A stretch of DNA of 64,000 nucleotides from NCBI RefSeq assembly GCF_036507355.1, contig NZ_AP027877.1; one strand, written 5' to 3'. Under the pieces are notes generated by a model, which saw only the letters and a list, made by a program, of their open reading frames with translations, searched no databases and had not been told where the DNA came from. Each line of letters starts with the position of its first letter. The first letter of the stretch is position 1. This document shows, piece by piece, positions 4,910 to 38,615 of this stretch. Origin of the DNA: Escherichia coli. GTDB taxonomy: Bacteria > Pseudomonadota > Gammaproteobacteria > Enterobacterales > Enterobacteriaceae. The position numbers and the translations under genes were made by a program.

Positions 4910-4918
4910 TGCGTTTTT
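4910..4918. repeat. target-site duplication (left copy) TGCGTTTTT
   Basis: Identical 9-mer directly flanks both IS1 ends (4910..4918 and 5687..5695). Confidence 0.8.
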
Positions 4919-4973
4919 GGTGATGCTGCCAACTTACTGATTTAGTGTATGATGGTGTTTTTGAGGTGCTCCA

Positions 4974-5671: not shown

Positions 5672-5686
5672 GTTGGAGTCATTACC

Positions 5687-5695
5687 TGCGTTTTT
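5687..5695. repeat. target-site duplication (right copy) TGCGTTTTT
   Basis: See left copy. Confidence 0.8.
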
Positions 5696-6945
5696 ACTGT
5701 CAGTAAACAAGAAGAAGATCAGCCTGCGTACCGTTGGCGCGGCGTTAGTGTTACAGGTTGTGATTGGCGGGATTATGCTTTGGTTACCGCCAGGGCGTTG
5801 GGTCGCTGAAAAAGTCGCTTTTGGCGTGCATAAAGTGATGGCGTACAGCGATGCAGGTAGCGCATTTATCTTCGGTTCGCTGGTCGGGCCGAAAATGGAC
5901 ACGCTGTTTGATGGCGCAGGATTTATCTTTGGTTTCAGGGTGTTACCGGCAATTATCTTCGTCACCGCGCTGGTGAGTATTCTCTATTACATCGGTGTGA
6001 TGGGGATCTTAATTCGCATTCTCGGCGGTATATTCCAGAAAGCATTAAATATCAGCAAGATCGAGTCATTCGTCGCGGTCACTACCATTTTCCTCGGGCA
6101 AAACGAAATTCCGGCGATCGTCAAACCCTTTATCGATCGTCTGAATCGCAATGAATTATTTACAGCGATTTGTAGTGGCATGGCCTCGATTGCTGGTTCG
6201 ACAATGATTGGTTACGCCGCACTGGGCGTGCCTGTGGAATATTTGCTGGCGGCATCGTTAATGGCGATCCCAGGCGGGATCTTGTTTGCCCGCCTGCTAA
6301 GCCCGGCTATGGAATCTTCGCAGGTTTCTTTTAATAACCTCTCTTTCACCGAAACACCGCCAAAAAGCATTATTGAAGCTGCCGCGACAGAGGCAATGAC
6401 CGGGCTGAAAATCGCCGCAGGTGTGGCGACAGTAGTGATGGCATTTGTCGCCATCATTGCGTTAATTAACGGTATTATCGGCGGCGTTGGCGGCTGGTTT
6501 GGTTTTGAACATGCCTCGCTGGAATCCATTTTAGGTTACCTGCTGGCCCCACTGGCGTGGGTGATGGGTGTTGACTGGAGTGATGCGAATCTTGCCGGGA
6601 GTTTGATTGGTCAGAAACTGGCAATAAATGAATTTGTCGCTTATCTCAATTTCTCACCCTATCTGCAAACGGCTGACAAGCTGGATGCTAAAACCGTGGC
6701 GATTATTTCCTTCGCGTTGTGCGGTTTCGCTAACTTTGGTTCTATCGGGGTGGTGGTGGGGGCGTTTTCTGCGGTTGCGCCACACCGTGCGCCGGAAATC
6801 GCCCAACTTGGTTTACGCGCGCTGGCGGCGGCGACACTTTCTAATCTGATGAGTGCCACCATTGCCGGGTTCTTTATTGGTTTAGCGTAGTGTGCGATTT
6901 ATGAGCCGGATAATATGCGGTCAAGCGTCGAATCCGGCAACATTG

Positions 6946-8034
6946 TTACACCATTGGCATTAATGAAAGCGCGTTATCGGCAGACAAGGTAGGGTTATTT
7001 AAGCTGCCGCTGGCGCGTGAAATTGCCGCGCAGGCCATCGCAAAACGGGCGCTGTCACGGAAATTGTTTCCTTCCAGAAAGCTATATACCAGGCCCGCCA
7101 TAAAACCATCGTCAGCACCAAAACTGTCTACTGTCGTATGCGCTGGTGCGGTCAGCAAAAATTGTTCTCCATCCTTTTCGCTGCAATAAACTGACTCATC
7201 GGGCAAATAAACAAACAGTTGCTGAACACCTTGCTGATGCAACGCATTCACTGCAGCATTACGGTCAGCATCGCTGGTGATCGCCTGTCCCCATAAAATT
7301 TCCAGCTCCGGTAAAGTGGGTTTCAGGGTGTGAATATGCGCCAGCCAGTGTTTGATTTTGCCCGCTTTGAATTCTGAAACGGTATCGACAAACACCGGGA
7401 TCTCATCAGCGAGGGTAAAGACCCATTCCAGCGCCTCGGCTGTCAGGTTGCAATCAGCCAGTACCACGCCCGCATGACGAAGTAAATCGCGCGACCCGTT
7501 CAGTAGTTGCGGTGTCAACTGTTCCAGCAGATGGGTATCGTTAATCGCCAGCACGGTTTGATCGTCTCGATTGGCAATTGCCAGATACGTCGATGTGCTT
7601 TGACCATGCAAACGAACGCAGCCGGAGACATTCACGCCGGCACGGCGCGTTTCTTCCAGGAGCATTTCGCCATAAAAGTCATCGCCAATCACTGAAAGCA
7701 AATGGACGTCGCGGCCTAACAGCGCCAGATTGTGGGCGATATTGCGTCCAACGCCGCCTGCCGAGCAATGAATTGTACCGGGATGAGAAGCCGATTGCGG
7801 GTAACGGATATCCGCCATCCCGCGAATATCCATATTGATTGTCCCCACCACTACGCAGTATTCCTGCTCGGTGAGAATGTAACCTTTGCCTTTAATCCGG
7901 CCTTTGCGCATTAAATCCATAATATGCGCCGCAACGCGCGAACGGCTGATTTGCAGCATGTCCGCAATTTCGTTCTGCTGAATCAGCGGGTTACGCCGTA
8001 AAATTGCAAGGATCTCCTTTTCCCGGTTATTCAT
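6946..8034 (-). CDS. yeiI: PfkB-family sugar/nucleoside kinase with N-terminal HTH domain
   Basis: 362-aa ORF; N-terminal HTH (EILAILRRNPLIQQNEIADMLQISRSRV) fused to ribokinase-like domain (GADD motif). Confidence 0.85.
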   Translation of the reverse strand: MNNREKEILAILRRNPLIQQNEIADMLQISRSRVAAHIMDLMRKGRIKGKGYILTEQEYCVVVGTINMDIRGMADIRYPQSASHPGTIHCSAGGVGRNIAHNLALLGRDVHLLSVIGDDFYGEMLLEETRRAGVNVSGCVRLHGQSTSTYLAIANRDDQTVLAINDTHLLEQLTPQLLNGSRDLLRHAGVVLADCNLTAEALEWVFTLADEIPVFVDTVSEFKAGKIKHWLAHIHTLKPTLPELEILWGQAITSDADRNAAVNALHQQGVQQLFVYLPDESVYCSEKDGEQFLLTAPAHTTVDSFGADDGFMAGLVYSFLEGNNFRDSARFAMACAAISRASGSLNNPTLSADNALSLMPMV

Positions 8035-8036
8035 CT

Positions 8037-8894
8037 TCAGGCTACCGCTTTTTCAGTTTGTTGCGCTTTCAGCCAGGCGATCTCTTCTGCCCAGATATCC
8101 GGGTTGATGGTTTCGAGGATCAGCGGAATGCCGTCGAAACGGTCGTCCTGCATGATCCAGCGGAACGCATCATGACCGATATTGCCTTCACCGAGGCTAT
8201 GATGGCGGTCAACGCGGCTGCCAAAGGTGCTTTTCGCATCGTTAAGGTGCATCCCGCGCAGATACTTAAAGCCGACAATACGGGCAAAATCAGCGAACGT
8301 TTTCTCGCATTCGGCTGGAGTACGCAAATCATACCCGGCAGCGAAAGCATGGCAGGTATCAATGCAGACGCCGACACGGGATTTATCTTCCACGCCGTCG
8401 ATAATCGCCGCGAGATGTTCGAATTTAAACCCTAAGTTACTGCCCTGACCGGCGGTGTTTTCAATCACCGCGGTCACACCTTGAGTTTTATCCAGCGCAA
8501 TGTTGATGGATTCGGCAATACGCGCAAGGCAATCCTCTTCTGAAATCTGCATCAGATGGCTGCCAGGGTGGAAGTTGAGCAAAGAAAGCCCCAGCTGTTC
8601 GCAACGCTGCATTTCATCTATAAAGGCATCGCGCGATTTTTCCAGAGCTTCAGTGACCGGATGTCCGAGGTTAATCAGATAGCTGTCGTGGGGAAGAATT
8701 TGCGCCGATGTGTAGTGATATTTTTCACAGGCGGCTTTGAATTCATCGATGGTTTGCGTCGTGAGCGGTGCGGCACGCCACTGACGTTGGTTTTTGGTGA
8801 ACAAGGCAAACGCGGTTGCGTCGATTTCGGCGGCGCGAATTGCGGCATTTGCCAGACCGCCAGCAGCACTAACGTGCGCTCCAATGTATTTCAT
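8037..8894 (-). CDS. nfo: endonuclease IV (AP endonuclease)
   Basis: 285-aa [17 protein letters not shown]...; length and sequence as recalled for Nfo. Confidence 0.95.
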
Positions 8895-8967
8895 GCGAGG
8901 ACTCCTGTTAAACCCGCTGGAGGAAAACGGTAATGATAGCGGGTTAACAGGAGCAAGATGTAGTGGT

Positions 8968-10017
8968 TTATGCGATGACGCTTTGAATCACATAGTTAAT
9001 CGCACCACCACCAACAATCAGCCAGGCAAACAGTACCAGTGCCATCAGCAGAGGTTTCGCCCCGGCTTTTTTCAGCGCGCTGACGTGAGTGGTCAGACCC
9101 AGCGCCGCCATCGCCATTGCCAGCAGGAAGGTATCCAGCGTTACCAGCATGTTCACCACGCTCTGCGGTAACAGGTGGAACGAGTTAAAGATGGCAACTA
9201 CGATGAACAAGATGGCAAACCACGGAATAGTGATTTTGCTTTTCTCGCCGCTGTTCGCCCCAGACAGCTGTTTAACACGCGCCGCCAGCAGGATGAGGAA
9301 CGGAGCCAGCATCATCACGCGCAGCATTTTGGAAATAACTGCTGCGTTTTCCGCATCCGGGCTGATGGCATGACCTGCCGCCACCACCTGCGCCACTTCG
9401 TGCACAGTAGAACCAATGTAGATACCGAAAGTTTCCGGACTAAACCATTGAGACATCAGCGGATATATCGCCGGGTAGAGGAAAATCGCGACGGTCCCGA
9501 AGATAACAACGGTTGCAACAGCCACGGTTACTTTACTGGCTTCCGCTTTCACTACCGGCTCAGTCGCCAGTACCGCGGCAGCACCACAAATACTGCTACC
9601 GGCACCGATCAACCAGCTGGTGTGCTTATCCAGACCAAACACTTTCTGCCCCAGGAAGCAAGCCAGCAGGAAGGTACTGGACAGCGTCAGCACGTCAATG
9701 ATGATCCCACTGATACCGACATCGGCAATTTGCGAGAACGTCAGACGGAAGCCATAAAGAATGATACCCAGACGTAATAAATATTGCTTGGCAAACAGCA
9801 CACCACCGTCACAGCTTTTCCAGATGTGCGGATAGATGGTGTTGCCTAAAACCATCCCCAACAAGATTGCGAGGGTGAGGGCACTAAACCCGGCACCCGC
9901 AACCGCGGGAATGGAACCACCCCACAGGGCGACCCCGGTGATAACTGCACTCAGGGCTAACCCCGGAATAAAATGCCACAGTGTACGATGTTGTTTCTGT
10001 AAGGTGATATTCGTCAT
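8968..10017 (-). CDS. yeiH: UPF0324 family inner membrane protein
   Basis: 349-aa polytopic membrane ORF; divergent from the LysR regulator yeiE. Confidence 0.85.
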
Positions 10018-10115
10018 AACCCTCTCCTTTAACCGGGCATAAGGTTACGACTAACTGGTTTAAAAATAAAATTGATTATATATTTATAATTAATCTTTAT
10101 AAGTGGTAAGCGACT

Positions 10116-10997
10116 ATGCACATCACCCTCCGGCAGTTGGAAGTTTTTGCAGAAGTATTGAAAAGTGGATCAACCACCCAGGCGTCGGTGATGCTGGCGT
10201 TGTCGCAATCAGCAGTGAGCGCAGCCTTGACCGACCTGGAAGGGCAACTTGGCGTGCAACTGTTTGATCGCGTGGGGAAAAGACTGGTTGTTAATGAACA
10301 CGGGCGGCTGCTCTATCCGCGTGCGTTGGCATTGCTTGAACAGGCGGTTGAAATCGAACAACTGTTTCGCGAAGACAACGGCGCGATTCGTATCTATGCC
10401 AGTAGTACCATCGGTAACTACATTCTGCCTGCAGTTATCGCCCGTTATCGCCATGATTATCCGCAGTTGCCGATTGAACTTAGCGTTGGGAACAGCCAGG
10501 ACGTGATGCAAGCGGTGCTGGATTTCCGCGTTGATATTGGCTTTATTGAAGGACCGTGCCACAGCACTGAAATCATTTCTGAACCGTGGCTGGAAGACGA
10601 GCTGGTGGTTTTCGCCGCGCCGACTTCGCCGTTGGCCCGTGGTCCGGTCACCTTAGAACAGCTGGCCGCTGCGCCGTGGATCCTGCGTGAACGCGGCTCC
10701 GGCACGCGGGAGATTGTCGATTATCTGTTGCTGTCACATTTACCGAAGTTTGAGATGGCGATGGAATTAGGTAACTCCGAGGCAATCAAACATGCGGTGC
10801 GTCATGGGTTGGGAATTAGTTGCCTGTCGCGACGGGTGATTGAAGACCAATTGCAGGCAGGCACATTAAGTGAAGTTGCGGTCCCTCTGCCGCGCCTGAT
10901 GCGTACGTTGTGGCGTATACATCATCGGCAAAAACACCTTTCCAACGCGCTACGGCGCTTTCTGGACTATTGCGATCCCGCGAATGTACCGTGTTAA
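10116..10997 (+). CDS. yeiE: LysR-type transcriptional regulator
   Basis: 293-aa ORF with N-terminal LysR HTH ([24 protein letters not shown]...). Confidence 0.85.
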
Positions 10998-11201
10998 GTT
11001 GCTGTACAAGAACATGCTGGTGCTGTGTCGATTTCGTGACGCAGCGCCCTCAGCATGCATTCGCCAGAAAAGAGATTGGCTGCTTTACTTATAATCCCTG
11101 GGCGATCATGAAGGTGTCTTATAACCGTGTATTTCTGCCGGAAGGATTGCCAATCGTCTGCTACAATCGCGCCTCATTTTTTAGATGGATAGCATTTTTG
11201 T

Positions 11202-12671
11202 ATGGTTTCCGAAACTAAAACCACAGAAGCGCCGGGCTTACGCCGTGAATTAAAGGCGCGTCACCTGACGATGATTGCCATTGGCGGTTCCATCGGTACA
11301 GGTCTTTTTGTTGCCTCTGGCGCAACGATTTCTCAGGCAGGTCCGGGCGGGGCATTGCTCTCGTATATGCTGATTGGCCTGATGGTTTACTTCCTGATGA
11401 CCAGTCTCGGTGAACTGGCTGCATATATGCCGGTTTCCGGTTCGTTTGCCACTTACGGTCAGAACTATGTTGAAGAGGGCTTTGGCTTCGCGCTGGGCTG
11501 GAACTACTGGTACAACTGGGCGGTGACTATTGCCGTTGACCTGGTTGCAGCTCAGCTGGTCATGAGCTGGTGGTTCCCGGATACACCGGGCTGGATCTGG
11601 AGTGCGTTGTTCCTCGGCGTTATCTTCCTGCTGAACTACATCTCTGTTCGCGGCTTTGGTGAAGCGGAATACTGGTTCTCACTGATCAAAGTCACGACAG
11701 TTATTGTCTTTATCATCGTTGGCGTGCTGATGATTATCGGTATCTTCAAAGGCGCGCAGCCTGCGGGCTGGAGCAACTGGACAATCGGCGAAGCGCCGTT
11801 TGCTGGTGGTTTTGCGGCGATGATCGGCGTAGCTATGATTGTCGGCTTCTCTTTCCAGGGAACCGAGCTGATCGGTATTGCTGCAGGCGAGTCCGAAGAT
11901 CCGGCGAAAAACATTCCACGCGCGGTACGTCAGGTGTTCTGGCGAATCCTGTTGTTCTATGTGTTCGCGATCCTGATTATCAGCCTGATTATTCCGTACA
12001 CCGATCCGAGCCTGCTGCGTAACGATGTTAAAGACATCAGCGTTAGTCCGTTCACCCTGGTGTTCCAGCACGCGGGTCTGCTCTCTGCGGCGGCGGTGAT
12101 GAACGCAGTTATTCTGACGGCGGTGCTGTCAGCGGGTAACTCCGGTATGTATGCGTCTACTCGTATGCTGTATACCCTGGCGTGTGACGGTAAAGCGCCG
12201 CGCATTTTCGCTAAACTGTCGCGTGGTGGCGTGCCGCGTAATGCGCTGTATGCGACGACGGTGATTGCCGGTCTGTGCTTCCTGACCTCCATGTTTGGCA
12301 ACCAGACGGTATACCTGTGGCTGCTGAACACCTCCGGGATGACCGGTTTTATCGCCTGGCTGGGGATTGCCATTAGCCACTATCGCTTCCGTCGCGGTTA
12401 CGTATTGCAGGGACACGACATTAACGATCTGCCGTACCGTTCAGGTTTCTTCCCACTGGGTCCGATCTTCGCATTCATTCTGTGTCTGATTATCACTTTG
12501 GGCCAGAACTACGAAGCATTCCTGAAAGATACCATTGACTGGGGCGGCGTAGCGGCAACGTATATTGGTATCCCGCTGTTCCTGATTATTTGGTTCGGCT
12601 ACAAGCTGATTAAAGGAACCCACTTCGTACGCTACAGCGAAATGAAGTTCCCGCAGAACGATAAGAAATAA
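11202..12671 (+). CDS. lysP: lysine-specific permease (APC family)
   Basis: 489-aa ORF MVSETKTTEAPGLRRELKARHLTMIAIGG...; amino-acid permease signature. Confidence 0.95.
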   Translation: MVSETKTTEAPGLRRELKARHLTMIAIGGSIGTGLFVASGATISQAGPGGALLSYMLIGLMVYFLMTSLGELAAYMPVSGSFATYGQNYVEEGFGFALGWNYWYNWAVTIAVDLVAAQLVMSWWFPDTPGWIWSALFLGVIFLLNYISVRGFGEAEYWFSLIKVTTVIVFIIVGVLMIIGIFKGAQPAGWSNWTIGEAPFAGGFAAMIGVAMIVGFSFQGTELIGIAAGESEDPAKNIPRAVRQVFWRILLFYVFAILIISLIIPYTDPSLLRNDVKDISVSPFTLVFQHAGLLSAAAVMNAVILTAVLSAGNSGMYASTRMLYTLACDGKAPRIFAKLSRGGVPRNALYATTVIAGLCFLTSMFGNQTVYLWLLNTSGMTGFIAWLGIAISHYRFRRGYVLQGHDINDLPYRSGFFPLGPIFAFILCLIITLGQNYEAFLKDTIDWGGVAATYIGIPLFLIIWFGYKLIKGTHFVRYSEMKFPQNDKK

Positions 12672-12690
12672 GTTTCTCCCTTCCTTGCTA

Positions 12691-12716
12691 AGCCCTCTCA
12701 ACCGAGAGGGCTTATT
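12691..12716 (+). terminator. hairpin terminator downstream of lysP
   Basis: Inverted repeat AGCCCTCTC-aacc-GAGAGGGCT followed by T-containing tract. Confidence 0.5.
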
Positions 12717-12768
12717 CAATTCCATTTCCCTGACAAATCATGTGGATATAAAATTTAACATTTGGATT

Positions 12769-12794
12769 GATAATTGTTATCGTTTGCATTATCG
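12769..12794. promoter_or_regulatory. Fur-box-like sequence in cirA promoter
   Basis: GATAATTGTTATCGTTTGCATTATC resembles Fur consensus GATAATGATAATCATTATC; cirA is a classical iron-repressed gene. Confidence 0.45.
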
Positions 12795-12962
12795 TTACGC
12801 CGCAATCAAAAAAGGCTGACAAATCAGAGGCTGGTCCGGTTTTCTGGGATGATCACCTGCATACAAATAAGTCCACCGCGATGCTGCCGTACGCAAGGGG
12901 ACGTGAAGAAGATGTGAGCGATAACCCATTTTATTTTCGTAGTTACCTCATGGAGATATGGA

Positions 12963-14954
12963 ATGTTTAGGTTGAACCCTTTCGTACGGGTCGGGCTGTG
13001 TTTGTCCGCTATTTCTTGTGCATGGCCTGTGTTAGCGGTCGATGATGATGGCGAAACGATGGTTGTCACTGCATCTTCCGTTGAACAAAACCTTAAAGAT
13101 GCACCCGCCAGTATCAGCGTCATTACCCAGGAAGACCTGCAGCGAAAACCGGTACAGAATCTGAAGGATGTCCTCAAAGAAGTGCCTGGCGTACAACTGA
13201 CGAACGAAGGGGATAACCGTAAGGGCGTTAGTATTCGTGGTCTTGACAGCAGCTACACCCTGATTCTCGTCGACGGTAAACGCGTTAACTCCCGCAATGC
13301 CGTCTTCCGCCACAATGATTTCGATCTGAACTGGATCCCGGTCGATTCCATCGAACGTATTGAAGTGGTCCGTGGCCCGATGTCGTCGCTGTACGGTTCC
13401 GATGCGCTCGGCGGTGTAGTGAATATCATCACCAAAAAAATCGGTCAGAAATGGTCGGGTACCGTTACCGTCGATACCACCATTCAGGAACATCGCGATC
13501 GCGGTGATACCTATAACGGTCAGTTCTTTACCAGTGGACCATTAATTGATGGTGTGCTGGGAATGAAAGCTTACGGCAGCCTGGCAAAACGTGAAAAGGA
13601 TGACCCGCAAAACTCAACGACCACCGATACCGGAGAAACGCCGCGTATTGAAGGATTCTCCAGCCGCGACGGCAATATCGAATTTGCCTGGACACCGAAT
13701 CAAAATCACGATTTTACTGCCGGATACGGTTTCGACCGTCAGGATCGTGATTCCGACTCGTTGGACAAAAACCGCCTGGAACGCCAGAACTACTCCGTCA
13801 GCCATAATGGGCGTTGGGATTACGGCACCAGCGAACTGAAATACTACGGTGAGAAAGTCGAGAACAAAAACCCTGGCAACAGCAGCCCGATAACTTCCGA
13901 AAGCAATACGGTCGACGGCAAATACACCTTGCCGCTGACGGCGATTAATCAGTTTCTCACGGTTGGCGGTGAATGGCGTCACGACAAACTTAGCGATGCG
14001 GTGAACCTGACCGGGGGAACCAGCTCCAAAACGTCTGCCAGCCAGTACGCGCTGTTTGTGGAAGATGAATGGCGGATCTTCGAGCCGCTGGCGCTGACGA
14101 CCGGCGTACGTATGGACGATCATGAAACCTACGGTGAACACTGGAGTCCGCGTGCCTACCTGGTTTATAACGCCACCGACACCGTAACGGTGAAAGGGGG
14201 CTGGGCGACGGCATTTAAAGCACCTTCTCTGTTGCAACTTAGCCCTGACTGGACGAGCAATTCCTGCCGTGGCGCATGTAAGATTGTGGGTAGCCCGGAT
14301 CTGAAACCAGAAACCAGCGAAAGTTGGGAGCTGGGGCTGTACTACATGGGTGAAGAAGGCTGGCTGGAAGGGGTTGAATCCAGCGTTACCGTTTTCCGTA
14401 ACGATGTGAAAGATCGCATCAGCATCAGCCGTACGTCTGACGTCAATGCTGCACCGGGCTACCAAAACTTTGTCGGTTTTGAGACGGGCGCTAACGGACG
14501 GCGCATACCGGTATTTAGCTACTACAACGTTAACAAAGCTCGTATTCAGGGCGTGGAAACCGAACTGAAAATTCCGTTCAACGATGAATGGAAACTGTCA
14601 CTCAACTACACCTACAACGATGGTCGTGATGTCAGCAACGGCGAAAACAAACCGCTATCCGATCTGCCGTTCCATACCGCTAACGGTACGCTGGACTGGA
14701 AACCGCTGGCGCTGGAAGACTGGTCATTCTATGTTTCTGGTCACTATACCGGGCAGAAACGAGCCGACAGCGCGACGGCTAAAACACCGGGCGGTTATAC
14801 CATCTGGAATACCGGCGCGGCCTGGCAGGTGACTAAAGACGTCAAACTGCGCGCAGGCGTGCTGAACCTTGGCGACAAGGATCTCAGTCGTGACGACTAC
14901 AGCTATAACGAAGACGGACGTCGTTACTTTATGGCAGTGGATTATCGCTTCTGA
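12963..14954 (+). CDS. cirA: TonB-dependent outer-membrane receptor for catecholate siderophores / colicin I receptor
   Basis: 663-aa ORF with signal peptide, TonB box (ETMVVTAS) and C-terminal aromatic residue (...YRF). Confidence 0.95.
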
Positions 14955-28142: not shown

Positions 28143-29269
<1,127 letters not shown>

Positions 29270-29363
29270 TTAATTCGTAAAACGTGCTACCGATCACATT
29301 AAGAATTCTCAGCATAGTTGAATTTTAGGGAGGTAACCTCGGGCGAGCGCCCCGTTCAGCACA

Positions 29364-30272
29364 CTAATTCTGCTGTAAAAAGTGCAGAAACTGACTTAAA
29401 GCATAAGAAGGCGTTTCGTTATTGCGCCAGAACACACCGACGCTACCTTTCTGTTCTATCTTTGGCAGGTTGAGTATCACCAGTTGTCCCTGGCTGGCAT
29501 AACGTTGCGCCAGGCGTAATGACAAAATAGAGATCATATCGCTGCTTTGTAACAGGTTGGTACTGACGTTCATCGACGCCGACTCAATCGTGTTTTCTGG
29601 CAGCATTACGCCGTGGTCTACCAGCGCATTATCAATACTAATGCGAATGGGGGTACCCGTCGGCCAGACGATCCAGCGCCAGTTGGCAAGATCATTCCAG
29701 CTGAGGGTGGCGTATTTCGCCAGTGGGTGCTCAGGGCGGGCGACAAAGCATACTGGCTCGGTGTACAGCACCTGATAATTCAGTGGCAGCTGCAATGCGC
29801 GACCGCCAATTCGCCCAACGACCACATCGACAGAACCTGCCAATAGATCTTGCAGCAATGGGGTCATCACCTTCTCTTCGATATTCAGGTGTAGAGTTGG
29901 CATCTTCGTAAGCAAATGCAAAATCGCCTGGGATACGCAGTCAGTGGCGACGGGAGAACAGCCAATTTTCAGACTGCCGACCAGTCCACCTTGTTTAAAA
30001 CGGGCCAGTTCATGTTGCGATCGCTCCATGTCATTGATTAACCGTTGGGCATGTTGCAATAACAATTTGCCGCCTTCAGTCGGACGTAATCCTTTGCTGT
30101 GCCGCTCAAAAAGTGTGATTCCAATCTCATCTTCGAGTTGTGACAACCATTTCGAAAGCGCAGGTTGGGTGATATTCATCATTCGTGCGACATGGGTTAG
30201 ATTGCCCTGTTCACCCAGCGCCACCAGCATTTCAAGGTGATGTAGTTTTAATTTTTGCGCCCAGTTCGCCAT
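29364..30272 (-). CDS. mhbR: LysR-type transcriptional regulator of the gentisate cluster
   Basis: ORF 29364..30320 trimmed to MANWAQKLKLHHLEMLVALGEQGNLTHVARMMNITQPALS (LysR HTH); divergent from the catabolic operon. Symbol by analogy to the Klebsiella mhbRTDHIM cluster. Confidence 0.75.
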   Translation of the reverse strand: MANWAQKLKLHHLEMLVALGEQGNLTHVARMMNITQPALSKWLSQLEDEIGITLFERHSKGLRPTEGGKLLLQHAQRLINDMERSQHELARFKQGGLVGSLKIGCSPVATDCVSQAILHLLTKMPTLHLNIEEKVMTPLLQDLLAGSVDVVVGRIGGRALQLPLNYQVLYTEPVCFVARPEHPLAKYATLSWNDLANWRWIVWPTGTPIRISIDNALVDHGVMLPENTIESASMNVSTNLLQSSDMISILSLRLAQRYASQGQLVILNLPKIEQKGSVGVFWRNNETPSYALSQFLHFLQQN

Positions 30273-30398
30273 TTGCCATAACCTCCAGGTTATCTCTCTG
30301 CCCGAAATGCCATTGTACATCTCATCTCTTTAATCACAATATCGCAACATATACAAAACAAAAGAAACATCTACCTTACCTGCACTGAGGCATTTACT

Positions 30399-31757
30399 AT
30401 GACTCAACGACGTGATTTACAAGCACTTATCGATGCTGCTCCGGTCGGCAAGATGCAGTGGCGCGTTATCATCTGCTGTTTTCTGGTGGTAATGCTCGAT
30501 GGTTTTGACACCGCGGCTATCGGATTTATCGCCCCTGATATTCGCACTCACTGGCAACTCACCGCAGGCGATCTCGCCCCGCTTTTTGGCGCGGGTCTGC
30601 TAGGATTAACCGCAGGCGCACTGCTTTGTGGCCCGTTGTCCGATCGCTTTGGTCGCAAGCGGGTGATTGAGCTGTGCGTCTTTTTGTTTGGCGCGTTAAG
30701 CCTCGCCTCGGCTTTCTCACCGGATCTGCAAACGCTGGTCTTCCTGCGCTTTCTCACCGGCCTGGGTCTGGGCGGCGCGATGCCGAACACCATCACCATG
30801 ACCTCGGAGTATCTGCCTGCCCGCCGCCGCGGCGCGCTGGTGACGCTGATGTTTTGCGGCTTTACGCTGGGTTCGGCGTTTGGCGGGATTGTCAGTGCGC
30901 AGCTGGTGCCGGTGATTGGCTGGCACGGCATTCTGGTGTTGGGGGGCGTGTTACCGCTGATGCTGTTTGTCGCACTGCTGGTAGTTCTGCCGGAATCGCC
31001 ACGCTGGCAGGTGCGCCGCCAGCTACCGCAGGCGGTGATTGCGAAAACCGTCAGCGCCATCACCCGCGAGCGTTATGTCGATACCCACTTTTATCTCATT
31101 GAATCAGCCTCCGTTACAAAAGGCAGCATTCGTCAACTGTTTATGGGACGTCAGTTACCCATCACGTTGATGCTGTGGGTAGTGTTCTTTATGAGCCTGC
31201 TGATTATTTACCTGCTCTCAAGCTGGATGCCGACGCTACTGAACCATCGCGGCATCGACCTGCAACACGCGTCCTGGGTCACCGCCGCGTTCCAGATTGG
31301 TGGTACGTTAGGCGCGCTGGCGCTGGGTGTGCTGATGGATAAGTTCAATCCTTTCCGCGTGCTGGCGCTGAGCTATGCCATAGGCGCTATATGCATCGTG
31401 ATGATTGGCTTAAGCCAGGATGGATTATGGTTGATGGCGCTGGCGATTTTCGGCACTGGCATTGGCATTAGCGGATCGCAGGTGGGGCTGAATGCGCTGA
31501 CCGCAACACTTTATCCAACACAAAGTCGCGCCACGGGCGTGAGCTGGTCAAATGCTATCGGCCGCTGCGGCGCGATTGTTGGTTCGCTGTCTGGCGGCGT
31601 GATGATGGCGATGAATTTCTCTTTCGACACCCTGTTTTTCATTATCGCTGTGCCTGCGGCGATCAGTGCGGTGATGTTAACCCTGCTGATTACCGTGGTT
31701 CGCCAGTCGACCTCTGTCCCTGACTCACTGCCTCGCGCAGGCGTTGTGAACGAATAA
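30399..31757 (+). CDS. mhbT: MFS transporter (aromatic acid/H+ symporter family), probable 3-hydroxybenzoate/gentisate uptake
   Basis: 452-aa 12-TM ORF; first gene of the operon. Confidence 0.75.
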
Positions 31758-31768
31758 GGAGCATCCCA

Positions 31769-32797
31769 ATGACTGATAACAATCAAAATAGCCGCGAGCA
31801 ATTTTATCAGCATATTTCCGGGCAAAACCTGACCCCGCTGTGGGAGTCACTGCACCATCTGGTGCCGAAAACGCCCAACGCTAACTGTGCGCCAGCGTAC
31901 TGGAATTATCAGGAGATCCGCCCGCTGCTACTGGAGAGCGGCGGCCTGATTGGTGCGAAAGAGGCCGTGCGCCGCGTGCTGGTGCTGGAAAACCCGGCGC
32001 TGCGCGGGCAGTCTTCCATTACCGCGACTTTATATGCCGGTTTGCAACTGATCATGCCGGGCGAAGTGGCACCGAGTCATCGTCATAATCAGTCGGCGCT
32101 GCGTTTTATTGTTGAAGGCAAAGGGGCATTTACCGCCGTTGATGGCGAACGCACGCCAATGAATGAAGGCGATTTTATCCTGACCCCGCAGTGGCGCTGG
32201 CACGATCACGGTAACCCTGGCGACGAACCGGTTATCTGGCTCGATGGGCTGGATCTGCCATTAGTGAATATTCTGGGCTGCGGTTTTGCCGAAGATTATC
32301 CGGAAGAGCAACAACCGGTAACGCGTAAAGAGGGAGATTATCTGCCGCGTTACGCTGCCAATATGTTGCCGCTGCGGCATCAGACGGGGAACTCCTCGCC
32401 GATCTTTAACTATCGTTATGACCGCAGCCGCGAAGTGCTGCACGATTTAACCCGACTGGGCGATGCCGACGAGTGGGATGGCTACAAAATGCGCTACGTC
32501 AACCCGGTCACCGGCGGCTATCCGATGCCGTCGATGGGCGCTTTCCTGCAACTGCTGCCGAAAGGGTTTGCCTCACGCGTTGCGCGTACCACTGACAGCA
32601 CCATCTACCATGTGGTGGAAGGTAGCGGGCAGGTCATCATCGGCAATGAAACCTTCAGCTTTAGTGCAAAAGATATCTTCGTGGTGCCGACCTGGCATGG
32701 CGTGTCGTTCCAGACCACGCAAGATTCCGTTTTATTTAGTTTTTCGGACAGACCGGTACAAGAAGCCCTGGGGCTGTTCCGCGAAGCGCGTTATTAA
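31769..32797 (+). CDS. mhbD: gentisate 1,2-dioxygenase (bicupin)
   Basis: 342-aa ORF with cupin His motifs ([17 protein letters not shown]); typical gentisate dioxygenase length. Confidence 0.8.
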
Positions 32798-32811
32798 TTT
32801 AGGAGAGAAAA

Positions 32812-33513
32812 ATGACTCAATACGTATTCGAACCGCAAGCGCCCGTTACCGTACCGGTTGTTGGCAGTGATGAACAATTCCCCGTGCGCCGCGTTTACTG
32901 CGTCGGACGTAACTATGCCGCTCACGCCCGCGAAATGGGCTTTGATCCGGATCGTGAACCGCCATTCTTCTTCTGCAAACCGGCGGATGCCGTTGTTCCG
33001 GTTGCCGCTGGTGAAACGCTGGCGCTGCCGTATCCGGCACAGACCGATAACTACCATTACGAAATTGAACTGGTGGTGGCGATTGGTAAAAAAGGCAGCG
33101 ATATCCCGCTGGAACACGCCCATGAATATGTCTGGGGTTATGCCACGGGTCTTGATATGACTCGGCGTGACCGTCAAATGGAAATGCGCCAGATGGGCCG
33201 CCCGTGGGAAATCGGTAAAGCGTTTGATCTCTCAGCGCCCATCGCGCCGCTGCACAAAGCCCGCGATATCGGCGGTATTGATAATGCGCCAATCTGGTTA
33301 CAGGTTAACGGCGAAGATCATCAGCGCAGCGATATTCGCCATCTCATCTGGTCGGTGAATGAAACCATCAGCTATCTGTCAGGCTTCTTTGAGCTGCAAC
33401 CGGGCGATCTGATCTTCACCGGTACGCCGGAAGGGGTTGGCCCGGTAGTGAAAGGTGATGTGATCACAGGCAACGTCGAGGGCTTAACGCCTATCGCGGT
33501 GAAGATTGTCTGA
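32812..33513 (+). CDS. mhbH: fumarylpyruvate hydrolase (FAH family)
   Basis: 233-aa ORF with FAH-fold signatures ([14 protein letters not shown]; [10 protein letters not shown]). Confidence 0.75.
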
Positions 33514-33518
33514 GGTGC

Positions 33519-34166
33519 ATGATGAAGCTGTACAGTTTTTTTAATAGTTCAGCGTCGTACCGGGTACGCATTGCGCTGGCGCTGAAAGGCATTAATTACC
33601 AGACCGAAGGGGTGAATATCCGTATTGGTCAGCAAAATGAACTGGCCTATCGGCGGATGAATCCGGTCGGGCTGGTGCCGACGCTGCTGACTGACGAGGG
33701 CGAATCACTCGGACAATCGCTGGCGATTATTGACTGGCTGGAGAGGCACTACCCGCAAGTTCCGCTGGTGCCGCAGGAAGAGCCGGCCCGCAACAAGGTG
33801 CTGGAAATTGTCTATGCCATCGCTTGTGATATTCATCCATTGAATAACTTGCGCGTGCTGCGCTACCTGACCGAAGAACTGAACGTCAGTGAAGAAGAAA
33901 AAAAACGTTGGTATGCGCACTGGATCCAGCAAGGGTTAAGCGCGGTGGAACAACTGTTGCGCCAGAACCAGTCGGGGCAATTTTGTGTGGGCGAGACGCC
34001 GACGCTGGCAGATTGCTGCCTTGTCCCGCAGTGGGCGAACGCGCTACGCATGAACTGCGATTTGAGCGGGTATCCACGCTGCAAAGCGGTGTACGACGCC
34101 TGCACACAGCTGCCAGCGTTCATTGCCGCAGCGCCAGAAAATCAACAAGATAAAATTTCAGCCTGA
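33519..34166 (+). CDS. mhbI: maleylpyruvate isomerase (glutathione S-transferase zeta-like)
   Basis: 215-aa ORF with GST N-terminal fold (MKLYSFFNSSASYRVRIAL). Confidence 0.75.
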   Translation: MMKLYSFFNSSASYRVRIALALKGINYQTEGVNIRIGQQNELAYRRMNPVGLVPTLLTDEGESLGQSLAIIDWLERHYPQVPLVPQEEPARNKVLEIVYAIACDIHPLNNLRVLRYLTEELNVSEEEKKRWYAHWIQQGLSAVEQLLRQNQSGQFCVGETPTLADCCLVPQWANALRMNCDLSGYPRCKAVYDACTQLPAFIAAAPENQQDKISA

Positions 34167-34180
34167 CCAGGAGAACTATA

Positions 34181-35374
34181 ATGACGAAAGTGACACGCGC
34201 AGTAATTGTGGGAGGCGGGATCGGCGGTGCGGCAACTGCGCTGTCACTGGCCCGCCTGGGGATCAAAGTGGTGCTGCTGGAAAAGGCGCATGAGATCGGT
34301 GAGATTGGCGCGGGCATCCAGTTGGGGCCAAATGCGTTTTCGGCGCTGGACAGCCTCGGCGTCGGCGAAGTTGCCCGCCAGCGCGCGGTGTTTACCGATC
34401 ACATTACCATGATGGATGCGGTGAACGCCGAAGAAGTGGTGTGCATTGAAACCGGGCAGGCTTTTCGTGACCATTTCGGCGGCCCTTACGCGGTGATCCA
34501 CCGGGTTGATATTCACGCCTCGGTGTGGGAAGCGGTACTGACGCATCCGGACGTGGAATATCACACCTCCACCAACGTCGTGGATATTCGCGAGACGGAA
34601 GACGATGTCACCGTGTTTGACGATCGCGGCAATAGCTGGACCGGCGATATTCTGATTGGCTGTGACGGCGTGAAGTCAGTGGTGCGCCAGAGCTTATTGG
34701 GCGATGCGCCGCGTGTCACCGGACATGTTGTCTACCGTGCGGTTATCGATCGTGCCGATATGCCGGAAGATTTGCGCATTAACGCACCGGTACTGTGGGC
34801 GGGGCCGCATTGTCACTTGGTGCATTACCCTTTGCGCGGCGGCAAGCAGTATAACCTGGTGGTAACATTCCACAGCCGCCAGCAGGAAGAGTGGGGCGTG
34901 AAGGATGGTAGTAAAGAGGAAGTGCTCTCTTACTTTGAAGGGATTCACCCCCGTCCGCGCCAGATGTTGGATAAACCGACTTCATGGCGACGCTGGTCAA
35001 CCGCTGACCGTGAACCGGTGGCGAAGTGGGGAACGAAGCGCATAACGCTTGTGGGCGATTCGGCCCATCCGGTGGCGCAATATATGGCGCAGGGAGCCTG
35101 TATGGCGCTGGAAGATGCAGTAACGCTGGGTAAGGCGCTGGCGCAGTGTGAGGGTGATGCGGCGCAAGCCTTTGCGCTGTATGAGTCGGTACGAATTCCG
35201 CGCACCGCGCGCATCGTCTGGTCGACCCGTGAAATGGGGCGGGTTTACCACGCCGCAGGGGTAGAACGCCAGGTACGTAATCTGCTGTGGAAAGGGAAAT
35301 CGCAGGCAGAATTTTATCGCGGCATGGAGTGGTTGTACGGCTGGAAAGAAGATAACTGTTTGCAACCACGCTAA
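34181..35374 (+). CDS. mhbM: 3-hydroxybenzoate 6-hydroxylase (FAD-dependent monooxygenase)
   Basis: 397-aa ORF with N-terminal FAD-binding GxGxxG (VIVGGGIGGAATAL) and flavin monooxygenase core. Confidence 0.8.
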   Translation: MTKVTRAVIVGGGIGGAATALSLARLGIKVVLLEKAHEIGEIGAGIQLGPNAFSALDSLGVGEVARQRAVFTDHITMMDAVNAEEVVCIETGQAFRDHFGGPYAVIHRVDIHASVWEAVLTHPDVEYHTSTNVVDIRETEDDVTVFDDRGNSWTGDILIGCDGVKSVVRQSLLGDAPRVTGHVVYRAVIDRADMPEDLRINAPVLWAGPHCHLVHYPLRGGKQYNLVVTFHSRQQEEWGVKDGSKEEVLSYFEGIHPRPRQMLDKPTSWRRWSTADREPVAKWGTKRITLVGDSAHPVAQYMAQGACMALEDAVTLGKALAQCEGDAAQAFALYESVRIPRTARIVWSTREMGRVYHAAGVERQVRNLLWKGKSQAEFYRGMEWLYGWKEDNCLQPR

Positions 35375-35394
35375 GCACTTCTTCACCCAATCAG

Positions 35395-35450
35395 GCGCAC
35401 GGGCGGTCCCCTCGCCCCTTCGGGAGAGGGTTAGGGTGAGGGTAAAAATC
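35395..35450. repeat. GC-rich imperfect palindromic element at the gentisate-cluster/dusC junction
   Basis: GGCGCACGGGCGGTCCCCTCGCCCCTTCGGGAGAGGGTTAGGGTGAGGGT: CCCTCGCCCC/GGGAGAGGG imperfect inverted repeat. Confidence 0.4.
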
Positions 35451-35533
35451 TTGCCCGAATTAATCAGTAAGTCAGTTTGTCTGCAAACACAGGAGGCGCT
35501 AACATAGCGCCTCATTTTTTTGCGGGTGATGAT

Positions 35534-36484
35534 ATGCGTGTGTTACTGGCTCCGATGGAGGGAGTGCTTGACTCTCTGGTGCGTGAATTGCTGACCGAAG
35601 TTAACGACTACGATCTGTGCATCACCGAGTTCGTCCGCGTGGTGGATCAACTGCTGCCGGTGAAAGTCTTTCATCGCATTTGCCCTGAGCTACAAAACGC
35701 CAGCCGGACACCATCCGGTACGCTGGTGCGCGTGCAGTTGTTGGGTCAGTTCCCACAATGGCTGGCAGAGAACGCCGCCCGTGCGGTGGAATTAGGTTCC
35801 TGGGGCGTGGATCTCAATTGCGGCTGCCCGTCGAAAACGGTTAACGGTAGCGGTGGTGGGGCGACGTTACTCAAAGATCCTGAACTCATCTACCAGGGTG
35901 CAAAAGCGATGCGTGAAGCTGTACCGGCGCATTTGCCCGTCAGCGTGAAAGTGCGTCTGGGCTGGGACAGCGGTGAGAAGAAATTTGAAATCGCCGATGC
36001 GGTTCAACAGGCTGGTGCTACGGAGCTGGTGGTGCATGGACGGACAAAAGAGCAGGGTTACCGCGCGGAGCATATTGACTGGCAGGCGATTGGCGAGATT
36101 CGCCAGCGGCTGAATATTCCGGTGATTGCCAACGGCGAAATCTGGGACTGGCAGAGCGCGCAACAATGCATGGCGATCAGCGGCTGCGACTCAGTGATGA
36201 TTGGTCGCGGGGCGCTCAATATTCCCAACCTGAGCCGGGTAGTAAAATATAACGAACCGCGAATGCCGTGGCCGGAGGTGGTTGCTTTGCTGCAAAAATA
36301 TACCCGTCTGGAAAAGCAGGGCGATACCGGGTTATATCACGTAGCGCGGATTAAACAGTGGTTGAGTTATTTGCGTAAAGAATACGATGAAGCAACAGAA
36401 TTATTTCAGCATGTTCGTGTGTTGAATAATTCCCCTGATATTGCAAGGGCTATTCAGGCAATTGATATCGGTAAGCTGCGATAA
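35534..36484 (+). CDS. dusC: tRNA-dihydrouridine(16) synthase
   Basis: ORF 35477..36484 trimmed to [21 protein letters not shown]... (~316 aa); Dus-family TIM barrel. Confidence 0.9.
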
Positions 36485-36871
36485 TAGTGGAATCGCAGTT
36501 TATCAGAGACAATGAATCGCTTATTCAGCTTCATCATCTTGTTGCGCTCCTTTCATGAGCTAAGCCACATATTGCCACTGGCGCAAGGAGCGCGCAGGGG
36601 GAGGACAATCGCCTCCTCCCCCTGCACCCCCGGGCTCTGGCGAACAAAATCGCCGCTGCGCGGTACCTTCAGCTTATCCCCTTCGGCTACCGGGTCGGGC
36701 GCGAGGAAACGTCCTTGTAAGACGCGCCCTCAGCCCACATCCATGTGGGCTGCCCCGGCCTTCGGGGAACGCTTCAGCGATTTTGACGCCACCAACACCG
36801 GAGCTGTTTGCAAATCAAGTACACAAAATATCTAGTTCCTGACCTGACAACTTATATGTCATATCTGATTT

Positions 36872-36955
36872 TTAAAATATCATCTTAAATACGCCAGTCA
36901 CCACCAGTAGCCCAATCAGGAAAATAATCAATACAGCCCAGAGTATAATTTTCAT
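36872..36955 (-). CDS. yohP: small single-TM membrane protein (27 aa)
   Basis: Read from sequence: MKIILWAVLIIFLIGLLVVTGVFKMIF with RBS-like AAGGAACGCC upstream; below the 60-aa track cutoff; matches recalled YohP. Confidence 0.8.
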   Translation of the reverse strand: MKIILWAVLIIFLIGLLVVTGVFKMIF

Positions 36956-37178
36956 TGGCGTTCCTTTATTTGTGAGTGCTGAATAAGTATAGGAAAAAAC
37001 GAAGCCCTTTGCCGTTATCCATAAACGATTAAGATAAATCGGAAGATATCATTCACTTAGTGTATATTTTTCTGGATATGTCGTTTTATTGCTACTGATG
37101 TATTGCCACGCGAAACTAAAAAATATATCGCAACACACGGTAATCTCCGCGCACCTTTTCTTACCTGATTATTCCCCC

Positions 37179-38615
37179 ATGAATCGTGATTCCTTTTATC
37201 CAGCCATCGCCTGTTTTCCGCTGTTACTGATGCTGGCCGGGTGTGCGCCTATGCATGAAACCCGCCAGGCGTTAAGCCAGCAAACGCCCGCTGCACAAGT
37301 TGACACCGCATTACCCACGGCGCTGAAAAATGGTTGGCCAGACAGCCAATGGTGGCTGGAGTATCACGATAATCAACTCACTTCCTTAATTAACAATGCA
37401 CTACAGAACGCACCGGATATGCAGGTGGCTGAACAGCGCATTCAGTTAGCTGAAGCCCAGGCGAAGGCAGTTGCTACTCAGGATGGTCCGCAGATCGACT
37501 TTTCTGCGGATATGGAGCGGCAAAAAATGTCGGCAGAAGGGCTAATGGGGCCGTTTGCTCTGAACGATCCGGCCGCAGGTACGACCGGTCCGTGGTACAC
37601 CAACGGAACTTTTGGCTTAACGGCGGGCTGGCATCTCGATATCTGGGGAAAGAATCGGGCGGAGGTTACTGCCCGCCTGGGTACGGTTAAAGCACGGGCG
37701 GCGGAACGCGAGCAAACCCGCCAATTGCTGGCTGGCAGCGTAGCCCGCCTGTACTGGGAGTGGCAAACCCAGGCGGCGTTAAACACGGTCTTGCAGCAAA
37801 TCGAAAAAGAGCAGAACACCATTATCGCGACCGATCGCCAGCTATATCAGAACGGGATTACTTCTTCAGTTGAAGGTGTGGAAACCGATATTAATGCCAG
37901 CAAAACCCGGCAGCAGCTCAACGATGTCGCGGGGAAAATGAAAATTATTGAGGCACGGTTAAGCGCACTTACAAATCACCAGACAAAGTCATTGAAGCTT
38001 AAACCGGTCGCGTTGCCGAAAGTGGCAAGCCAGCTTCCTGATGAACTGGGGTACTCCTTACTGGCCCGGCGGGCAGATTTGCAGGCGGCGCACTGGTACG
38101 TTGAGTCATCGCTAAGCACCATTGATGCGGCAAAAGCGGCATTTTATCCTGACATCAACCTGATGGCCTTCCTGCAACAGGATGCGTTGCACTTAAGCGA
38201 TCTGTTCCGTCATTCCGCGCAGCAAATGGGCGTTACGGCAGGCCTGACGCTACCCATTTTCGATAGTGGTCGTCTTAACGCCAATCTCGATATCGCAAAA
38301 GCTGAAAGCAACTTGTCTATCGCCAGCTACAACAAAGCGGTGGTTGAAGCGGTGAATGACGTGGCGCGGACAGCCAGTCAGGTTCAGACACTTGCGGAGA
38401 AAAACCAGCATCAGGCGCAAATTGAGCGCGATGCCTTGCGTGTGGTAGGTCTTGCGCAGGCGCGCTTTAACGCGGGCATCATTGCTGGTTCCCGCGTCAG
38501 CGAAGCCAGAATCCCCGCGTTGCGTGAGCGGGCCAATGGCCTGTTATTGCAAGGGCAGTGGCTGGATGCCTCCATTCAACTCACTGGTGCGTTGGGCGGG
38601 GGTTACAAACGCTGA
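37179..38615 (+). CDS. mdtQ: outer-membrane efflux lipoprotein (OMF/NodT family), apparently intact
   Basis: ORF 37089..38615 trimmed to MNRDSFYPAIACFPLLLMLAGC (lipoprotein signal, LAGC lipobox), 478 aa, uninterrupted. Confidence 0.8.
   Translation: MNRDSFYPAIACFPLLLMLAGCAPMHETRQALSQQTPAAQVDTALPTALKNGWPDSQWWLEYHDNQLTSLINNALQNAPDMQVAEQRIQLAEAQAKAVATQDGPQIDFSADMERQKMSAEGLMGPFALNDPAAGTTGPWYTNGTFGLTAGWHLDIWGKNRAEVTARLGTVKARAAEREQTRQLLAGSVARLYWEWQTQAALNTVLQQIEKEQNTIIATDRQLYQNGITSSVEGVETDINASKTRQQLNDVAGKMKIIEARLSALTNHQTKSLKLKPVALPKVASQLPDELGYSLLARRADLQAAHWYVESSLSTIDAAKAAFYPDINLMAFLQQDALHLSDLFRHSAQQMGVTAGLTLPIFDSGRLNANLDIAKAESNLSIASYNKAVVEAVNDVARTASQVQTLAEKNQHQAQIERDALRVVGLAQARFNAGIIAGSRVSEARIPALRERANGLLLQGQWLDASIQLTGALGGGYKR

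Follow-up and report, generated by a model that had tools for sequence, protein, structure and literature searches.

Between the core genes yohJ and dusC, the stretch of Escherichia coli DNA analysed here (64,000 nucleotides of contig NZ_AP027877.1, referred to as the window) carries six genes that very probably constitute the mhbR/mhbTDHIM regulon for the aerobic catabolism of 3-hydroxybenzoate and gentisate, an old resident of this site that has been inherited mostly vertically and lost repeatedly. Both compounds are plant-derived aromatics, and the mhb operon is a textbook example of aromatic catabolism. The operon is already known: it is annotated in RefSeq, the dioxygenase from this lineage has been crystallised, and the pathway features in metabolic models of EHEC. 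Absence from K-12 and a slightly raised GC content do not by themselves make a gene block an acquired island, and at this junction it is K-12 that appears to hold the derived state.

The sequence of the locus is 100% identical to that of E. coli O55:H7 and 99.9% identical to that of O157:H7. The left flanking core gene, yohJ, belongs to the CidA/LrgA family and lies on the minus strand (28835-29233; NF002494, 218.8 bits, cut-off 124; 399 nt in RefSeq), while the right flanking core gene, dusC, lies on the plus strand (35534-36484; NF007838, 695 bits, cut-off 395, in agreement with RefSeq). The open reading frame map shows the gap between them filled by six intact genes, all full length, with mhbR divergent from mhbT-mhbD(gtdA)-mhbH-mhbI(maiA)-mhbM, and the RefSeq annotation of the O157:H7 locus contains the same six. 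A preliminary description of this DNA named the genes, their order and their likely functions in agreement with this map and with RefSeq, NCBIfam and the PDB matches. The left limit that it gave to the region, 29270, is the end of an over-extended yohJ reading frame opening with TTG, and the right limit, 35533, is the base preceding the dusC ATG. A scan of positions 28800-37200 against Rfam at E <= 0.1 matched no RNA families.

The pathway predicted from these genes would begin with the import of 3-hydroxybenzoate by MhbT (30399-31757, plus strand), an MFS aromatic-acid/H+ symporter that bears this name in RefSeq and is 88% identical to its K. oxytoca orthologue; its matches to PcaK (NF053517, E = 5.6e-128, 428 bits) and to the AAHS family (TIGR00895, 380 bits) lie below the respective cut-offs of 770 and 418.6. 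The FAD/NADH monooxygenase MhbM (34181-35374, plus strand) would then hydroxylate 3-hydroxybenzoate at C6, yielding gentisate. MhbM passes the equivalog cut-off of NF006021 (3-hydroxybenzoate 6-monooxygenase; 756.4 bits, cut-off 459) and matches the Rhodococcus structures 4BJY and 4BJZ at E = 3e-77. Ring opening of gentisate to maleylpyruvate would fall to MhbD/GtdA (31769-32797, plus strand), an Fe2+ bicupin gentisate 1,2-dioxygenase that passes the NCBIfam equivalog TIGR02272 (597.6 bits, cut-off 442.1) and matches the O157:H7 enzyme of PDB 2D40 over residues 1-342 at E = 2.8e-241. The two are essentially the same protein across all 342 residues, the PDB chain having an extra N-terminal extension of 12 residues and otherwise no difference of substance. 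Activity has been demonstrated for the O157:H7 enzyme, which was characterised by Adams et al. in 2006 (cited in PMC4585797).

Isomerisation of maleylpyruvate to fumarylpyruvate would be performed by MhbI/MaiA (33522-34166, plus strand), a glutathione-dependent zeta-class GST with an SSASYRVRIAL motif close to its N-terminus, which passes the equivalog TIGR01262 (309.2 bits, cut-off 171). Since this family is named for maleylacetoacetate, the maleylpyruvate substrate is suggested by the gene context together with the match to the maleylpyruvate isomerase structures 2V6K and 2JL4 (E = 3e-48). Finally, MhbH (32812-33513, plus strand) would hydrolyse fumarylpyruvate to fumarate and pyruvate. Its FAH fold is clear, with matches to PDB 6J5Y (E = 7e-113) and to 4MAQ, titled 'putative fumarylpyruvate hydrolase' (E = 3e-72), and it passed no NCBIfam equivalog cut-off in the profile search.

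Growth on 3-hydroxybenzoate and gentisate is predicted from this gene set, and no report of E. coli growing on either compound was found in the searchable literature. Older annotations and models name MhbM a salicylate hydroxylase; EHEC metabolic models list 'salicylate hydroxylase' beside gentisate 1,2-dioxygenase (PMC3229490), and the PDB structure closest to MhbM is titled 'probable salicylate monooxygenase'. These observations, along with the missing growth reports, would fit a cluster that is a cryptic remnant or that acts on another substrate such as salicylate, a reading that we regard as extremely improbable. Against the salicylate 1-monooxygenase profile TIGR03219 MhbM scores only 138 bits, with a cut-off of 446, and on the NCBIfam scores we reject its designation as a salicylate hydroxylase. 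Furthermore, the six open reading frames are intact and conserved across genera, the dioxygenase is active in the work attributed to Adams et al., and GtdA protein has been detected in the bovine rumen, among the O157 proteins up-regulated there in vivo (PMC9135228).

The regulator gene mhbR (29364-30272, minus strand) corresponds to a 909-nt LysR gene in RefSeq, and its product has 84% amino-acid identity to the K. oxytoca orthologue. The best NCBIfam match of MhbR is to PcaQ (TIGR02424, E = 2.8e-55), at 187 bits against a cut-off of 304; because this score is far below the equivalog cut-off, MhbR is better described as a relative of the PcaQ-type LysR regulators than as PcaQ, from which it also differs in controlling another operon. 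Within the mhbR-mhbT control region (30273-30398), an alignment of the intergenic sequences of 19 taxa reveals a nearly invariant inverted repeat, ATAACC-N4-GGTTAT (30278-30293), located 6 nt from the mhbR start codon. This box resembles the published PcaQ site, ATAACC-N4-GGTTAA, and is a candidate binding site for MhbR, which, positioned beside its own start codon, would probably activate the operon when the substrate is present.

At the opposite end of the operon, a terminator scan identified, 14 nt ahead of the dusC ATG, a hairpin and T-run resembling an intrinsic terminator (35493-35520, plus strand); ATTTTTTT follows its 9-bp stem, in which 6 of the pairs are G-C. The hairpin is conserved in K-12, Salmonella, K. 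pneumoniae and E. hormaechei, all of which are without the operon at this position, and in the window it probably marks the transcript end of the mhb operon. The mhbM-dusC spacer of the window also contains, outside the operon proper, an inserted copy of a dispersed palindromic repeat of about 108 nt (35381-35488). This copy is absent from E. coli MB53, the divergent Escherichia lineage E69, E. albertii and Citrobacter, where the spacer measures 61-65 nt, and the 121-nt stretch that contains it has a median of 16 matches per E. coli genome.

The same six genes, in the same order and with a divergent LysR regulator, make up the mhbRTDHIM cluster of Klebsiella 'pneumoniae' M5a1 (Jones & Cooper 1990, Robson et al. 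1996, Lin et al. 2010 and Xu et al. 2012, as cited in PMC3572157 and PMC11603403). The correspondence with Klebsiella drawn in the preliminary description is borne out when genomes of the K. oxytoca group are taken as a stand-in for the M5a1 sequence: the K. oxytoca and K. michiganensis orthologues have 84-92% amino-acid identity, and they keep the same order and the same yohJ-dusC position. The copy described here differs from that of M5a1 in its host and in the dispersed-repeat insertion after mhbM, while the one genome of K. pneumoniae sensu stricto that was compared is without the cluster at yohJ-dusC. The nagIKL genes of Ralstonia sp. U2 and the gentisate genes of P. aeruginosa and Burkholderia have the three ring-cleavage pathway steps in common with mhb, but their gene order, regulators and upstream feeding pathways are unlike it; the gentisate genes of Burkholderia xenovorans, for instance, have a MarR regulator (PMC3572157).

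The arrangement yohJ-mhbRTDHIM-dusC is present in about 30 species representatives belonging to more than 12 genera, with the site occupied in E. albertii, E69, Citrobacter, the Klebsiella oxytoca group, Raoultella, Kluyvera, Pluralibacter, Shimwellia and others, and empty in one genome each of Salmonella enterica, K. pneumoniae and E. hormaechei. Gentisate genes have been reported for Salmonella Typhimurium. Per-gene nucleotide identity to the window is much the same for the cluster as for its flanks, at approximately 90 versus 90% in E. albertii, 82 versus 81% in Citrobacter and 79.5 versus 78.5% in K. oxytoca. Over all pairs of 30 loci, cluster divergence follows flank divergence with a Mantel r of 0.95 and a slope of 0.95, a value reached by none of 2000 permutations, and cluster GC follows host GC. 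An exception is Pluralibacter, in which the distance to Pseudocitrobacter is 0.12 for the cluster against 0.20 for the flank and GC is 55% in the cluster against 62% in the flank, which shows that the cluster allele was replaced there at the yohJ-dusC site. On grounds of parsimony and co-divergence, the operon is best read as an old resident of this site in the Enterobacteriaceae rather than as an insertion in the lineage of the window.

The opposing account, in which an accessory island was inserted horizontally at yohJ-dusC in the O157/O55 lineage and K-12 retains the original empty site, is highly improbable. It would accommodate the restriction of the cluster to 611 of the 5426 complete E. 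coli genomes, its GC content of 55.0% against 52.4% in the flanks, and the demonstrable mobility of the operon elsewhere, on IS-flanked islands and plasmids. However, the site is occupied in the genera named above by clusters that have diverged as their flanks have, and a similar GC offset of 1-3 points is found in nearly all hosts. The ORF map and annotation reveal no integrase, IS, transposase or tRNA/att target at the borders of the cluster, where flanking direct and inverted repeats were also sought and none found. The term accessory island, used in the preliminary description, thus stands as far as variability within E. coli is concerned, while its implication of insertion is at odds with the outgroup synteny, the Mantel correlation and the lack of mobility signatures. 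Of the signs of insertion to which that description had looked, the GC profile gives a margin like that of nearly every other host, and comparison of the junction finds the same arrangement in so many genera that the K-12 state must be considered derived. It had also named in advance, as evidence against insertion, the occurrence of the cluster at this site in K-12-like strains, and MB53 is such a case: its SanA, Cdd, YohK and YohJ are identical to those of K-12 DH1 (the same WP accessions), and it carries the cluster at yohJ-dusC.

The statement that yohJ and dusC are adjacent in K-12 was correct, the two genes being 238 bp apart in DH1 with none of the six genes between them. Identity between K-12 and the window ends at 29308, or possibly at 29313 if a small indel is allowed for, and restarts at 35494; when cluster-bearing alleles without the dispersed repeat are used instead, the K-12 match starts at the equivalent of window position 35378. 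The yohJ-proximal spacer common to K-12 (29234-29308), delimited by pairwise alignment with the DH1 intergenic region, is conserved whether or not a taxon carries the cluster. A single empty-site allele accounts for 4918 of the 5426 complete E. coli genomes. The segment missing from this allele begins about 55 nt beyond the mhbR stop codon and runs to 3 nt beyond that of mhbM; 105 nt of unrelated sequence take its place. This filler is single-copy in E. coli; a blastn-short search against all fetched loci gave no match other than the 16-nt ancestral spacer, located at the right edge of the filler, and Smith-Waterman alignment to six clusters on both strands gave a score of 14, under the shuffled mean of 15. 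With clusters at this site in more than 12 genera, cluster and flanks that have diverged alike, no mobile-element signatures and a GC margin like that of nearly every other host, the K-12 state is best explained by deletion. K-12 and around 90% of E. coli would accordingly share one common deletion allele, the product of loss and not of gain.

Among the cluster-bearing E. coli, alleles at the native site differ by 4-5% in the cluster and by 1-3.5% in the flanks, and MB53 is 96.0% identical to the window in the cluster and 99.0% in the flanks. This higher divergence of the cluster points to recombinational replacement or re-acquisition of the operon at this site in some lineages. The same could be imagined for the window, where an operon lost from its ancestral locus would have been regained, or its allele replaced, through recombination in the yohJ and dusC flanks with another Escherichia donor. 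In keeping with this are MB53, whose flank proteins are identical to those of K-12 and whose cluster differs by 4% from that of the window, the operon copies on islands, which are mosaic relative to the window with per-gene identities from 95.7% to 99.6%, and the allele replacement at the same site in Pluralibacter. We nevertheless consider it improbable, as identity between the window and E. albertii is 90.0% in the cluster and 89.5% in the flanks, which indicates an allele of E. coli age and not a foreign one; long separate persistence of a few carrier lineages could equally yield the higher cluster diversity. Mostly vertical residence is the reading that we prefer for the window.

Beyond the native site, copies of the operon are found on IS-flanked islands in O145, O103 and other strains and on about 26 virulence plasmids (ehxA/sta1). 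The presence of the operon on STEC islands and virulence plasmids, together with the expression of GtdA in the rumen, hints at the modest idea that phenolic-acid catabolism may matter in a bovine or plant-fibre niche. A bolder scenario, which we put forward tentatively and think rather unlikely, is that the empty site represents a single deletion allele, ancient and almost surgically precise, which then spread in E. coli, and that the operon was independently re-captured on the IS-flanked islands and the ehxA/sta1 plasmids. Were this so, 3-hydroxybenzoate/gentisate catabolism would seem to have been selected as a niche determinant in pathogenic lineages associated with ruminants, and excision and capture might be linked mechanistically. 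The island copies start at window position 29312, no more than about 5 nt from the breakpoint of the K-12 deletion.

Six uninterrupted open reading frames separate yohJ (28835-29233, minus strand) from dusC (35534-36484, plus strand): a LysR regulator (mhbR, 29364-30272, minus strand) and, on the plus strand with spacings of 8-17 nt, an MFS transporter (mhbT, 30399-31757), a bicupin dioxygenase (mhbD/gtdA, 31769-32797), an FAH-family hydrolase (mhbH, 32812-33513), a zeta-class GST (mhbI/maiA, 33522-34166) and an FAD monooxygenase (mhbM, 34181-35374). The stretch shares 100% identity with E. coli O55:H7 DEC5B and 99.9% with O157:H7 genomes, where RefSeq names the same six genes (LysR regulator, mhbT, gtdA, FAH-family protein, maiA, 3-hydroxybenzoate 6-monooxygenase), confirming the gene content first described. 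It is an already known, RefSeq-annotated member of the mhbRTDHIM cluster kind, the same kind as that of Klebsiella M5a1, for which a gentisate pathway is described (summarised in a passage of PMC3572157).

Proteins were assigned using NCBIfam models with curated equivalog cut-offs, together with PDB structure matches. The predicted functions are upheld by three enzymes that exceed these cut-offs, MhbD as gentisate 1,2-dioxygenase (597.6 bits, cut-off 442.1), MhbI as maleylacetoacetate/maleylpyruvate isomerase (309.2, cut-off 171) and MhbM as 3-hydroxybenzoate 6-monooxygenase (756.4, cut-off 459), and by the match of MhbD to 2D40 (E = 2.8e-241), the crystal structure of the O157:H7 gentisate dioxygenase, whose biochemical characterisation a passage of PMC4585797 credits to Adams et al. 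2006. Salicylate 1-monooxygenase was rejected for MhbM (138 bits against a cut-off of 446). For MhbI the matching structures are those of the maleylpyruvate isomerases 2V6K and 2JL4, and MhbH matches FAH structures, one a putative fumarylpyruvate hydrolase. MhbT and MhbR fall under the curated cut-offs, with PcaK/AAHS and PcaQ as respective top matches; their K. oxytoca orthologues, in the same gene order, are 88% and 84% identical.

Gene identities and dioxygenase activity are the demonstrated parts of the mechanism, and the other steps follow from the established gentisate pathway. MhbT would take up 3-hydroxybenzoate, MhbM would hydroxylate it at C6 to gentisate, MhbD would cleave the ring to maleylpyruvate, MhbI would isomerise this with glutathione to fumarylpyruvate, and MhbH would hydrolyse the latter to fumarate and pyruvate. 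In the rumen of cattle fed a high-fibre diet, GtdA is one of the proteins that O157 up-regulates in vivo (PMC9135228), and the operon is therefore expressed in a natural habitat; EHEC metabolic models have used the cluster as an EHEC-specific reaction set (PMC3229490).

The preliminary description regarded the cluster as an accessory island inserted at a junction that is empty in K-12. The absence is borne out, as only 238 bp separate yohJ from dusC in K-12 DH1, with identity to the window up to 29308 and again from 35494, but the insertion is not. When one genome per species was scanned, the dioxygenase was found in about 50 Enterobacterales loci, about 30 of which have the window's order sanA-cdd-yohK-yohJ-mhbR-mhbTDHIM-dusC, including E. 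albertii, a divergent Escherichia lineage (E69), many Citrobacter, K. oxytoca, K. michiganensis, K. grimontii, K. spallanzanii, Raoultella, Kluyvera, Pseudocitrobacter, Pseudenterobacter, Pluralibacter, Shimwellia and Entomohabitans. Cluster and flanks diverge from the window in step, with nucleotide identities of 90.0% and 89.5% in E. albertii, 82.1% and 81.3% in C. portucalensis, 79.5% and 78.5% in K. oxytoca, and 75.3% and 74.6% in Shimwellia. Across all 435 pairs of 30 native-site loci, regression of cluster distance on flank distance gave a slope of 0.95 and an intercept of 0.009 (Mantel r = 0.95; 0 of 2000 permutations as high). The GC comparison proposed as a check gave 55.0% for the cluster against 52.4% for its flanks; since the cluster exceeds its flanks by 1-3 points in nearly every host, and tracks host GC over a range of 54% (E. 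albertii) to 62% (Raoultella), this mild excess is a property of the genes rather than a sign of recent import. The ORF map, annotation and a repeat search revealed no integrase, IS, tRNA or flanking repeat at the window cluster. Judged from these sequence comparisons, the difference is a loss in K-12 and not a gain in the window. The native site is also empty in the one genome each of Salmonella enterica, K. pneumoniae and E. hormaechei, with differing middle spacers, a pattern that fits repeated independent losses.

The mhbM-dusC spacer is only 61-65 nt in E. coli MB53, E69, E. albertii and Citrobacter alleles, and K-12 retains all of it, starting CTTTAATCCGCTGACC 3-4 nt past the mhbM stop, so that the K-12 deletion begins about 55 nt beyond the mhbR stop and ends about 3 nt beyond that of mhbM. 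In its place is a 105-nt filler that shows no detectable resemblance to either the cluster or the flanks of the island copies. This filler (3040-3144 of the DH1 locus) is single-copy and carries an 11-bp-stem hairpin (AGAGGGATTGC...GCAATCCCTCT); a short motif, AGCATAGAGA, is seen again in the spacers of the empty K. pneumoniae and E. hormaechei sites, and also close to the Citrobacter yohJ-mhbR spacer. The window has, between mhbM and the terminator, a palindromic repeat of about 108 nt (35381-35488, core CCCCTTCGGGAGAGGGTTAGGGTGAGGG) that is missing from the short-spacer cluster alleles just named; a 121-nt stretch containing it has a median of 16 matching places per E. coli genome, and it presumably resembles the "box C" class of intergenic repeats.

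Among 5426 complete E. coli genomes, 611 carry the cluster and 4918 have the K-12-type empty junction, filler included, at 97.5% identity or more, and therefore share one empty-site allele. Native-site carriers include the O157/O55 lineage (at least 99.9% identical to the window), MB53-type strains (95.9%) and two further diverged backgrounds (94.8% and 95.3%), in one of which an IS200/IS605 insertion follows mhbM. MB53-type strains and K-12 have the same SanA, Cdd, YohK and YohJ protein sequences, and these strains are the K-12-like carriers that the preliminary description had held to be incompatible with its reading. Recombination at the locus is likely, because these alleles diverge more than their own flanks and gene-by-gene identities to the window form a mosaic; the window lineage's copy may itself have been restored or replaced in this way.

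We consider the locus only mildly interesting, for its single species-wide deletion allele and for recapture of the operon on STEC islands and virulence plasmids. Strains of O145, O103 and others carry an island-borne copy of window 29312-35429, 97-98% identical (at 4913-11029 of the loci from O145 RM8988-C1, AUSMDU00014361 and NS-NP030), adjoining ISEc60/IS66/IS3 remnants and CP4-type island genes. On its left, the copy begins no more than about 5 nt from the K-12 deletion's left breakpoint, and on its right it stops mid-way in the post-mhbM repeat; because half of this repeat is included, the copy was taken from an O157-type allele. NCTC9100 has only a 240-bp remnant of the island copy. About 26 plasmid-borne copies occur among complete E. 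coli genomes; in the one plasmid examined, pOkiPb01704_1 (225 kb), the operon (8001-13953) has IS91/IS3 remnants on one side and IS1414 on the other, with the genes for heat-stable enterotoxin (sta1) and enterohaemolysin (ehxCA) close by.

The 126-nt mhbR-mhbT control region contains an inverted repeat, ATAACC-TCCA-GGTTAT (30278-30293), almost invariant over 19 taxa from Escherichia to Leminorella and a candidate MhbR site. A promoter-like match on the minus strand (30339-30312) would place it inside the mhbR leader, as expected under LysR autoregulation. A hairpin with a 9-bp stem ahead of a T-run (35493-35520; about 3162-3190 in the DH1 locus), 14 nt 5' of the dusC ATG, looks like an operon terminator. 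It is kept in K-12, Salmonella, K. pneumoniae and E. hormaechei, all without a co-directional upstream gene, where it is either an mhb terminator left without its operon or an element that serves dusC expression in its own right.

The native-site cluster of Pluralibacter gergoviae has 55% GC against 62% in its flanks, and its distance to Pseudocitrobacter is 0.12-0.13 against 0.20-0.21 for the flanks, which looks like allele replacement via homologous recombination. Serratia (four loci, 84-93% amino-acid identity) and Trabulsiella (three loci, 83-93%) carry the cluster outside yohJ-dusC; identity higher than vertical descent predicts suggests horizontal transfer from Enterobacteriaceae to Serratia (Yersiniaceae). 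A 9162-nt contig (L047) in a MAG labelled Collinsella sp. encodes MhbR and MhbT that are 100%, and MhbM that is 98%, identical in amino acids to the E. coli proteins, and lacks full-length matches to mhbH and mhbI. The most likely explanation is mis-binning of an E. coli contig, bearing an internal deletion or assembly error, into an actinobacterial MAG. Beyond dusC, mdtQ (37179-38615) is intact at 478 aa, as in O157:H7 RefSeq, and is annotated as a frameshifted pseudogene in K-12 DH1.
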